A DNA stretch of 64,000 nucleotides from Candidatus Bathyarchaeia archaeon (lineage in GTDB: Archaea; Thermoproteota; Bathyarchaeia; Bathyarchaeales; Bathycorpusculaceae), in NCBI GenBank assembly GCA_038883775.1, contig JAVZLM010000006.1:32001-96000 (forward strand), in the 5' to 3' direction. The position numbers were made by a program, and so were the translations under genes. Below the pieces are notes generated by a model, which saw only the letters and a program-made list of their open reading frames with translations, searched no databases and was not told where the DNA came from. This document shows, piece by piece, positions 45,054 through 46,659 of this stretch. Numbering within the stretch: the first letter of the stretch is position 1; the number at the start of each line of letters is the position of its first letter.

Positions 45054-45452
45054 TCGACAAAACTCCGAGCATATAAATGCCTCAAATCCGACATAACCGA
45101 CACAAAAATGCAAAGCAAAGAAGAACAGGGTTTTTATATCACGCATTACCGACAGTTTTATATATGGCTTGTAAGAGATTACCTCTATTGGTGAATTTAA
45201 AATGTCGGAATACAATTTCAAAAAACCAGAATCAAGAGAAGAGCTTATCAGAGTGTTGACGGATGCCGCCAGAAGAGAAATGCAAGAACGACTTCGCACC
45301 AAGGAAAAACCGACAAAACCTACAGTTTCTGGGACGGCGAAAATTTTAAACATACATAGGGATACTCTTTATACTTGGCTTAAGGAGTTTAATGTCGATT
45401 TTGATGATATTTGTAAACAAGTGTCTACACAAGTTTTGTCGGAAACCGTCGA
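45054..45452 (+). promoter_or_regulatory. cluster of CCGACA/TGTCGG boxes over the promoter and HTH-coding region of fae-hps (putative operators), with TATA candidates and SD
   Basis: CCGACA at 45088, 45097, 45149, 45310; TGTCGG at 45203, 45437; variants TCGACA 45054, CCTACA 45319, TGTCGA 45393, CGTCGA 45447; TTTTATA at ~45132 and ~45156; GGTGA at 45190. Confidence 0.55.
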
Positions 45453-46659
45453 AATGCCTGGAAAATACACTTATCTAATTGGCGAAGCCCTTGTAGGAGA
45501 GGGCAATGAGGTTGCACATATCGATCTTTTGATAGGGGATAAGGAGGGTCCTGTGGGAGAAGCTTTTGCTCAAGGGCTTTCTAATCTTTCTATGGGGCAC
45601 ACGCCATTATTAGCAGTTATAAGGCCTAATCTTCCGCCAAAGCCTCATACGTTGCTTGTGCCGAAGGTTACTGTGCATCGTTTGGAAGACGCAAACAAGA
45701 TTTTTGGTCCAGCGCAGGCTGCTGTGGCTAAGGCTGTTGCGGATGCTGTTGAGGAGGGGATTATTCCTAAAGAGAAAGTGGATGATTGGGTTATAATTTG
45801 CAGTGTTTTCATACATCCACAAGCAAGCGATTACCGAAAAATATACCATTACAATTATGGGGCAACCAAGCTGGCTTTGAAGAGGGCGTTGGCAAAGTAT
45901 CCTTCGTTAGAGAAAGTTTTCTATGATAAGGATAGGGCTAAACATCCTATAATGGGATTCAAAGTGCCGCGCCTTTGGAGACCCCCTTATTTGCAAATTT
46001 CTTTGGATATACCAGATTTGGATAAGACTAAGAAGATTATAGCTCAGATTCCCAGAAGCGACAGAATAATATTGGAGGCTGGGACGCCGCTAATTAAGCG
46101 ATATGGAACAAGGGTGATAAGCGACCTTCGAGATGTCGCCAAAGATGTTTTCTTCATTGCGGACTTAAAAACTTTAGATGTTGGAAAGGTTGAGGTGGAC
46201 TTGGCTTATGATGAAACCGCAGATGCCGTTATCGCTGCTGGATTAGCGCCAGAAGAAACCCTTAACGCCTTCATTCACGAAGCAAAAAGGCTTGGAATAT
46301 ATGCTGTGGTGGATATGCTAAACGTAGAAGATCCCATCAAAAAATTGAAGACGCTTAGAGAATTCCCTGACGTAATAATCTTGCATAGAGGAATAGATGA
46401 AGAAACTGGACGGACAATAGGATTAGAACTTATACCAGAACTAAGGAAAACTTTCAGCGACAAGCGCTTTCTGATTGCTGTGGCAGGCGGTATAGTGCCA
46501 GAGACTGCGAAAGAGGCTTTGGAAAAAGGTGCTGATATAATCATTGTTGGAAGGTATGTTACGCAGTCAAAGGACATTGAAAGGGCTGTGAGGGACTTCC
46601 TTGAGCTTACGCCTTCAATGCGAGAAGATATAGACTTGTTCCGAGTTCACGTAGAATAG
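45202..46659 (+). CDS. fae-hps: HTH-fused bifunctional formaldehyde-activating enzyme / 3-hexulose-6-phosphate synthase
   Basis: ~85-aa N-terminal region with [22 protein letters not shown] (Fis/HTH-like); Fae domain [20 protein letters not shown]...[14 protein letters not shown]...YNYGATK; HPS domain [39 protein letters not shown]. Confidence 0.9.

Follow-up and report, generated by a model that had tools for sequence, protein, structure and literature searches.

Enzyme-repressor fusions are a known kind of regulator, with PutA, BirA and NadR as examples. In PutA of enteric bacteria, a "trigger enzyme", a ribbon-helix-helix (RHH) domain is fused to proline dehydrogenase and Δ1-pyrroline-5-carboxylate dehydrogenase, and autogenous repression is exerted via several short hexamer put operators in its own control region. 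BirA and NadR unite enzyme and repressor in one chain with an N-terminal winged helix-turn-helix (HTH); they target a biosynthetic operon via one palindromic operator and use the enzyme's own product as co-repressor. Here, we describe a gene from a 64,000-nucleotide stretch of the genome of an uncultured hot-spring archaeon, Candidatus Bathyarchaeia archaeon (assembly GCA_038883775.1, contig JAVZLM010000006.1, positions 32,001 to 96,000 of the forward strand; this whole stretch is termed the window), which encodes a Fae-Hps enzyme behind an N-terminal HTH. Judged from comparative sequence analysis, this gene is likely to specify an autoregulating, one-polypeptide enzyme-regulator, whose HTH would recognise CCGACA boxes at its own promoter and probably repress its own synthesis.

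Fae condenses formaldehyde with tetrahydromethanopterin (H4MPT) and Hps, the hexulose-6-phosphate synthase (HPS), cleaves or synthesises hexulose-6-phosphate; in many archaea, the Fae-Hps step serves both to produce pentoses and to remove the formaldehyde released. The canonical Fae-Hps of methanogens (NF009833, ~392 aa), to our knowledge devoid of a DNA-binding domain, aligns end to end with the enzyme part of the protein described here. Formaldehyde-handling genes, including hps-phi in Bacillus, are the realm of separate small formaldehyde-responsive regulators (HxlR, FrmR, EfgA), while in the present case the enzyme itself includes the putative DNA-binding domain. A close precedent is PutA, which likewise is a bifunctional metabolic enzyme with an N-terminal DNA-binding domain and which, in the RHH-Fae-Hps proteins of sister families described below, is matched even in domain type. 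Unlike PutA, the present protein is archaeal, belongs to another chemistry and pathway, carries an HTH of the small-terminase type and is not known to have a membrane or redox switch, and some of its boxes lie on the start codon and within the coding region; a phased array of multiple boxes is also not known from the BirA and NadR systems. The best sequence relatives of the extension are the N-terminal HTHs of the phage small terminases TerS (PF16677/phrog_606; PDB 2ao9, the latter a non-significant match), whose rings present many HTHs to repeated DNA sites.

A full-text literature search revealed no DNA-binding domain on Fae-Hps among titles and abstracts, with supplementary domain tables being a place where the extension could be mentioned. 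As far as we found, a DNA-binding Fae-Hps, its terminase-type HTH, phased boxes in the gene's own codons and a threefold convergent origin are new.

CCGACA boxes at the fused gene

One genome per prokaryote species was scanned, yielding 120 loci, 80 of which were kept; counts that refer to 81 loci add the window's own. By title, 78 of the 80 loci are from metagenome-assembled genomes (MAGs) of Bathyarchaeia, Bathyarchaeota or the Miscellaneous Crenarchaeotic Group (MCG), and two stand under other labels. When the 120 nt in front of each of the 81 starts were aligned, a near-invariant CCGACAnnYTTATATA emerged approximately 45–52 nt before the ATG. The proximal CCGACA box occupies the position of the TFB-recognition element (BRE), and the TATA box beside it presumably marks the promoter. 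The features of the locus, in window coordinates, are:

45088..45093, plus strand: distal CCGACA box a (~−114 relative to the ATG)
45097..45102, plus strand: distal CCGACA box b (~−105; distance to the proximal box, 52 bp)
45149..45154, plus strand: proximal CCGACA box at −52, 2 nt upstream of the TATA box, in BRE position
45157..45164, plus strand: TATA box TTTATATA, conserved at ~−45 across the upstream alignment
45190..45194, plus strand: Shine-Dalgarno-like motif GGTGA, 7 nt before the ATG at 45202
45202..46659, plus strand: HTH-Fae-Hps gene, ATG start, 485 aa plus stop
45202..45456, plus strand: N-terminal extension (aa 1–85) with helices, a KPTKPT arm and then a variable linker
45203..45208, minus strand: CCGACA box in inverted orientation (TGTCGG) that overlaps start codon and Ser2, present in 80/81 loci
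45310..45315, plus strand: intragenic CCGACA box, codons Pro37-Thr38
45325..45387, plus strand: HTH helices 42–48 and 53–62 of the AlphaFold model
45437..45442, minus strand: intragenic inverted box (TGTCGG) in linker codons, the least conserved box
45478..45954, plus strand: Fae domain (aa 93–251; PF08714, E 3.6e-72; PDB 1y5y_A, E 1.6e-44)
45985..46596, plus strand: hexulose-6-phosphate synthase domain (aa 262–465; PF00215 (OMPdecase), E 7.5e-32; PDB 9lj9_B, 3f4w_A, 3ajx_A)

The proximal box abutting the TATA box (CCGACAnnYTTAWATA) is found in 80 of the 81 HTH-type loci, and 56 of them have a plus-strand box between −120 and −91 (about −105). A purine-rich GGTG or GAGG is located at the Shine-Dalgarno position in most of the aligned upstream regions. 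Within the gene, most loci have one or two plus-strand boxes where K-P-T-K-P-T is encoded (+96 to +117), and many have another box at +210 to +222; in the bins from +230 to +249, a minus-strand box was counted 19 times over the 81 loci.

The Ser2 codon is TCG in 81/81 loci, as compared to 14% TCG among the Ser codons of the enzyme part, and the start-codon box implies that the protein always begins with Met-Ser followed by Glu, Gly or Asp, the codons of which start with G. In the KPTKPT arm, Pro37 is encoded by CCG (65/68) and both Thr38 (67/70) and Thr41 (78/81) by ACA, while other invariant Thr residues vary freely; proline-threonine dipeptides are encoded by CCGACA in 160 of 204 cases in the extension versus 8 of 36 in the enzyme part. 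Since synonymous sites are frozen only in the boxes, the coding-region boxes are held by selection on DNA or RNA and not on the protein. Preferred codons are also seen for Val65 (GTC, 70/80) and Asp66 (GAT, 61/79) at 45388–45402 (codons N64-V65-D66-F67), creating a TGTCGA at about +191, a one-mismatch copy of the inverted box and possibly a further weak site.

The distances between adjacent boxes cluster at 51–54 and 105–107 bp, and a period scan of 839 box-pair distances gave the best value at 10.55 bp (R 0.64, in phase), which places the boxes on one face of B-DNA; these box counts are from related genomes and not independent, with intergenic and synonymous sites being otherwise randomised among them.

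The array is also singular within its genome, a MAG of 1,693,884 bp in 28 contigs that is 91% complete (G000). CCGACA as such occurs 327 times in these 1.69 Mb (0.19 per kb) and 21 times in the 64-kb window (13.4 expected from shuffles), six of the latter copies being at this locus. The composite CCGACAnnYTTAWATA is found exactly once, at this promoter, which argues that CCGACA is not the organism's general BRE. The locus is the sole cluster of at least three CCGACA copies in the genome, in which no other box pair with a spacing of 52, 54, 106 or 107 bp was detected. Likewise, a six-frame profile search of the genome returned no second copy of the HTH (next match, E 0.11), so that a domain and a box array that are each unique in the genome reside on one and the same gene. 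A relaxed genome search for CGACA-N1-4-TATA gave two further weak places (C1:20642, plus strand, and C10:4768, minus strand), neither with a convincing gene downstream; on present evidence, no regulon beyond the own gene is claimed in this genome. Two other close CCGACA pairs exist in the window, at 39263/39327 (minus strand, 64 bp apart) and 50306/50330 (plus strand, 24 bp apart); by the search patterns applied, neither adjoins a TATA-like motif.

Domain type and box type across Bathyarchaeia

The strongest evidence for DNA binding at the own gene comes from the class-wide comparison, in which three DNA-binding domains are found on the same end of the same enzyme, each with boxes of its own. 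The sample comprised 301 genomes; Fae was detected in 180 of them, with the profile also matching the control genomes of M. jannaschii and M. acetivorans. The HTH profile matched 68/301 genomes, concentrated in the families f1 (47/48), f4 (5/6), f5 (12/12), f6 (1/1) and f14 (1/2); a weak f19 match (E 2.9e-4) could not be read. The divergent HTH families f4, f5 and f6 have kept the boxes at −52 and +1 and possess extra inverted boxes at ~−84 and ~−125, and in f14 the TATA-adjoining box reads ACGACA.

A second type of extension, ~56 aa in length with the consensus GLVRAPGRITQEQYRFLExLVEQGRYxSxSEAVRAAI, is just under threshold for the Pfam families RHH_1 and ParD, and its profile matches solved ParD/CopG ribbon-helix-helix antitoxins (3kxe_C, E 9.9e-5). 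This RHH profile is found in 40/301 genomes, namely in families f10, f12, f13, f16 (5/6), f19 (30/71), f28 and f29, which are without the HTH type apart from the weak f19 match. RHH-type loci (L089, L090, L096, L097 and L101–L118) typically have a palindrome TGTGAC-N8-GTCACA 13–14 bp upstream of the TATA box and a GTGACAC box ~52 bp further upstream. A third type was seen at two loci only, both of family f12 (L119 in G035 and L120 in G011); it contains an HTH of the form GLxIxxxAxKYxxSRDTxERRLK, ends with ...SRDT(V/I)ERRLK and has its best Pfam match in an ECF-sigma region-4-like model (E 9.6e-5). At these loci, TGCGGCA boxes directly follow the TATA box and TGCCGCA is present upstream. Plain Fae-Hps proteins (n = 15; L081–L088, L091–L095, L098–L100) start a few residues before the YLIGEAL motif.

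Box type varies with domain type. HTH-type promoters have CCGACA-TATA in 80/81 and GTGACAC in 0/81 cases; in RHH-type promoters, CCGACA was found in 0/19 and GTGACAC/GTGTCAC in 19/19, or 22/22 when three more loci (L109, L111 and L113) are added, with L127 and L131, which have no readable motif, not being counted. In the promoters of plain Fae-Hps genes, both CCGACA-TATA and GTGACAC were absent (0/14 each) and a lone CCGACA was seen in 1/14; this count leaves out L084, which is identical to L083, and L092, where neither box type was present in the fetched stretch. The first-pass annotation had proposed, from the sequence alone, that the extension binds DNA, and this comparative evidence indeed points to binding at the own promoter, given the phased, genome-unique boxes and the sister-family domains with other boxes.

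In a maximum-likelihood tree built from 54 enzyme-core sequences (midpoint root only), comprising the window, every second HTH locus (40 tried, 34 passing the length filter) and 19 of the 20 controls (without L092), the HTH-type sequences form one split (support 100/99) and the RHH-type sequences another (98/94), with the plain forms in between. The HTH- and RHH-type splits being parted by plain forms, the fusions represent separate events.

The extension and the enzyme part

When aa 1–95 were used as a query, 1030 database proteins matched at E<=0.01. Among the 120 matches listed, identity was 57–96% at 99–100% coverage, nearly all proteins were 479–489 aa long, their precomputed Pfam assignments comprised Fae/HPS-type families only, and their source names read "bifunctional Fae/Hps". 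The extension is present in 80/80 of the kept loci, where it begins at a homologous codon (75 ATG, 5 GTG); the conservation of the N-terminal domain among the Fae-Hps homologues of Bathyarchaeia, which the first-pass annotation had named as a point to be surveyed, is thereby established for these loci. In alignment A1 (80 sequences, without L007, the N-terminus of which is identical to that of L006), the invariant positions are M1, S2, P9, T41, A46, H52-R-D-T-L-Y-T-W59 and F67. Thr55 and Thr58 are invariant, yet all four Thr codons are in use, which argues for selection on the protein sequence of the extension. Two HTH-Fae pieces that break off early were noted among the homologues: L130 (G130:C84), which ends at the contig end, and P0068 (275 aa), in which the Fae match covers profile positions 1–118/159 only; neither is likely to be an HTH-Fae-only form, both being probably truncated or broken genes. 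Contigs from public hot-spring metagenomes stack on 45292–45439, the HTH codons, far above the rest of the gene; probably, these are relatives' contigs that match the highly conserved HTH DNA. Of 17 public sequencing runs listed for this DNA, none is recorded as RNA, and two of the four contig sets compared carry a metatranscriptomic label together with a flag for probable DNA, so that they are not taken as a measure of transcription.

According to an AlphaFold model of aa 1–90 made from A1, the extension consists of four helices (12–32, 42–48, 53–62 and 67–81; mean predicted local distance difference test (pLDDT) score 75.2), and the KPTKPT arm (aa 36–41) precedes the two HTH helices. The region thus models as a four-helix HTH, in line with the HTH surmised in the first-pass annotation. 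The same helices recur in the full-length model, where segment 75–89 has a pLDDT <50; this would fit a flexible tether, within a model that is poor overall. In a Pfam scan of the extension alone, only sub-threshold HTH matches were obtained, all of them centred on aa 41–64 (GP3_package, E 6.6e-5; HTH_29, 2.1e-4; HTH_28, 4.2e-4; HTH_23, 9.9e-4; HTH_8, 0.036). The alignment with PF16677 (GP3_package) spans aa 33–83 and profile positions 27–77/105, at a score under the gathering threshold, and phrog_606, "terminase small subunit", matches at E 1.5e-4.

A search of the A1 profile against 1.84 billion representative proteins returned 70 matches at E<=1e-3. Most of the strongest ones, which fall short of the full enzyme length and match from their first residues, are read as Fae-Hps fragments; next come small-terminase proteins of PF16677 (DNA-packaging protein gp3; E 1e-5 to 1e-4), followed by tandem-HTH proteins. 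When A1 was aligned by hhalign with ten terminase-like proteins (A3), the result was a probability of 98.9% and E 1.8e-17 over 51 columns with 39% identity, a figure inflated by the choice of the A3 members as matches to A1, though these are independent members of PF16677; the four that were scanned (P0164, P0166, P0173 and P0176) match that family at 1e-12 to 1e-24. Nearly all of the top VIA-align rows are HTH DNA-binding domains (TetR, AraC, sigma-28, P22 small terminase). By these sequence comparisons, the extension is an HTH with the DNA-recognition domains of viral small terminases as nearest relatives. The first-pass annotation had called the peptide at aa 41–63 "Fis/HTH-like"; profiles and model bear out the HTH, while the Fis-type assignment was dropped, with HTH_8 under threshold (14.2 bits versus 22) and small-terminase HTHs being nearer. 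Identity as a small terminase was also rejected. In contrast to TerS, the extension comprises the HTH part only, has neither an oligomerisation core nor a packaging context, and scores below the Pfam cut-off. Tandem copies of HTHs related to the extension, four to seven per protein, were observed in P0142, P0145, P0148, P0155, P0156 and P0159, with ...AEIAKKLGITxxTLYxYLRxxNVP... as a repeat example.

The NCBIfam equivalog model NF009833 (Fae/Hps) is matched from aa 91 to 484 over its positions 2–390/392, with 590.7 bits versus a cut-off of 274. This full-length canonical match implies that ~85–90 extra residues precede a complete enzyme; together with the Pfam matches and the GGTGA motif, it confirms the initial description of a Fae-Hps with an in-frame extension of ~85 residues. 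Mean column identity in the enzyme part is 86% (alignment A4), and, based on this near-invariance, both the Fae and the Hps catalytic activities are predicted to be retained. The genome contains only one HPS and two further stand-alone Fae paralogues, at C11:20510-20980 and C2:145820-146290, with ~53% identity to the Fae part; no HTH or HPS match was found by tblastn on the contigs that bear them. The neighbouring genes encode an M32 carboxypeptidase (upstream) as well as ribosomal protein S6e and aIF2-gamma (downstream), indicating an archaeal chromosome and suggesting no operon.

Proposed autoregulation and its alternatives

In the proposed mechanism, an HTH derived from a viral small-terminase DNA-recognition domain would be carried on the flexible linker of a complete Fae-Hps, and its recognition helix H52–W59, preceded by the basic KPTKPT arm, is predicted to bind CCGACA. 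Five to six boxes on one helix face are available over ~350 bp of the gene's own control region, with one box at the BRE beside the TATA box and another over the start codon, ~20 nt downstream of the expected transcription start. Occupancy of such positions, or of sites directly after the TATA box as in the third type, should block TFB or RNA polymerase, and it is on this ground that repression rather than activation is proposed. Relief might be brought about by a metabolite (formaldehyde, H4MPT, hexulose-6-phosphate or ribulose-5-phosphate), as envisaged in the first-pass annotation and following the precedent of PutA; simple concentration-dependent autorepression would fit too.

Entries of solved structures contain five chains for Fae and two to four for HPS. 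Five chains per Fae entry suggest that a Fae-Hps particle should present at least five HTHs on flexible linkers; the Fae part is expected to be pentameric, and several HTHs of one particle may occupy several boxes at once. The display of several HTHs by an oligomer, already envisaged in the first-pass annotation, fits both the 10.55-bp phasing of five to six boxes and the five-chain Fae entries. Helix-phased boxes ~52 bp apart would be compatible with one particle bending, looping or wrapping the DNA. HTH- and RHH-type loci share the ~52-bp spacing despite their unrelated domains, as would follow if the common enzyme core set the geometry. PDB entry 8ub7_B and eight further entries contain a 290-aa chain named "Avd" with a Fae-like segment (129–286, E 7.9e-44) and five chains per entry; it looks like a pentameric Fae joined to an accessory protein of a diversity-generating retroelement (DGR).

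Several points weigh against autoregulation by the fused domain. The box is only 6 bp long, the loci are kin, so that counts overstate independence, and the link between domain and box rests on three evolutionary events. No Pfam HTH family is reached at its curated cut-off (the best, GP3_package, has 23.5 bits versus 29.4), the hhalign figure is inflated as stated, the HTH profile has no significant match to PDB sequences (best, 2ao9_A at E 0.3), and Foldseek of the extension model against the PDB gave nothing at E<=1e-3. VIA-align scores against 48,161 chains (Z 5.0–5.8) are rated middling; fold-search scores being indecisive, no structural family was assigned from folds. The full-length model is poor (pLDDT 62.9 overall), another regulator or other targets may be unassembled in a MAG that is 91% complete, and the synonymous constraint on the intragenic boxes could stem from mRNA pairing with the start-codon box.

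Some of these points feed into competing explanations. CCGACA could be the operator of a separate regulator, whose gene could be missing from the incomplete MAG, with the fused domain serving for docking, oligomer assembly or unspecific nucleoid tethering, in line with HTH matches that remain under curated thresholds. We regard this as unlikely, considering that the box type changes with the type of the fused domain in three lineages, that plain Fae-Hps genes are without HTH- or RHH-type boxes, and that domain and box cluster, both unique in the genome, lie on the same gene. The frozen synonymous sites could alternatively reflect control at the RNA level, where AUGUCGG at the start pairs with the intragenic CCGACA and masks the start codon, whether or not the protein also binds its own mRNA. 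The hexamers are complementary, and the pairing is contained in the predicted minimum-free-energy structure of 30/81 loci (mean pair probability 0.34); in this window, the pair probability is 0.003, the −105 box and the −52 box, the best conserved one on the plus strand, are upstream of the TATA box and, thus, outside the expected transcript, and the box spacing follows the DNA helical repeat. As a substitute for DNA binding, RNA control is therefore improbable, while pairing could act in addition to it.

It is equally improbable that the fusion tethers the enzyme to DNA for local protection, formaldehyde being a DNA-damaging agent, or that it activates rather than represses, in either case without metabolite-sensing feedback. 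Activation would agree with the RHH-type palindrome 13–14 bp upstream of the TATA box, a site where archaeal activators also bind; both variants conflict with specific boxes only at the gene's own promoter and with boxes in typical repressor positions, i.e., over BRE and start codon in the HTH type and just downstream of the TATA box in the third type. Finally, the extension might be an annotation artefact, with translation starting at the internal ATG of MPGKY (aa 85–89) and the upstream frame open by chance. This gene indeed has an in-frame Met at aa 85; among the 23 loci with 90-aa extensions, however, the equivalent residue is A in 8, T in 6, M in 4, V in 3 and D in 2, and any Met within the last 12 residues of the extension is seen in only 16/80 loci. 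At the protein level, moreover, the extension is shared by over 1000 database clusters, and both TATA box and Shine-Dalgarno motif are positioned for the ATG at 45202. With its start homologous in 80/80 loci, this upstream ATG is taken as the real start, and the start-codon artefact, the probability of which is negligible, was rejected as refuted as far as sequence can show.

Beyond the autoregulation favoured here, a more far-reaching view can be put forward tentatively and with considerable doubt, namely that Fae-Hps has become a self-sensing switch at least three times, by way of a terminase-type HTH, an RHH and a second HTH, with a pentamer-based particle that uses helix-phased boxes ~52 bp apart to wrap or loop 150–350 bp of its own promoter and 5′ coding DNA and releases it on formaldehyde, H4MPT or a sugar phosphate. 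If this were true, the DNA would be handled in a manner resembling that of a small-terminase ring at a pac site, and pentose synthesis and formaldehyde load would set the enzyme level without a separate regulator.

The system would constitute a rare, testable enzyme-regulator in Archaea and a case in which a metabolic gene has recruited a DNA-recognition domain of viral origin. The predicted protein-operator pair, recognition helix HRDTLYTW with CCGACA, may be used without culturing the organism, in a class whose members are among the most abundant uncultured archaea of sediments and hot springs. Judged from the 301 genomes (180 with Fae; 68 with HTH and 40 with RHH), the majority of the lineages of this class that possess Fae appear to use the enzyme as its own transcription factor, and the natural triplicate of convergent fusions argues that autoregulation of Fae-Hps is selectively important.

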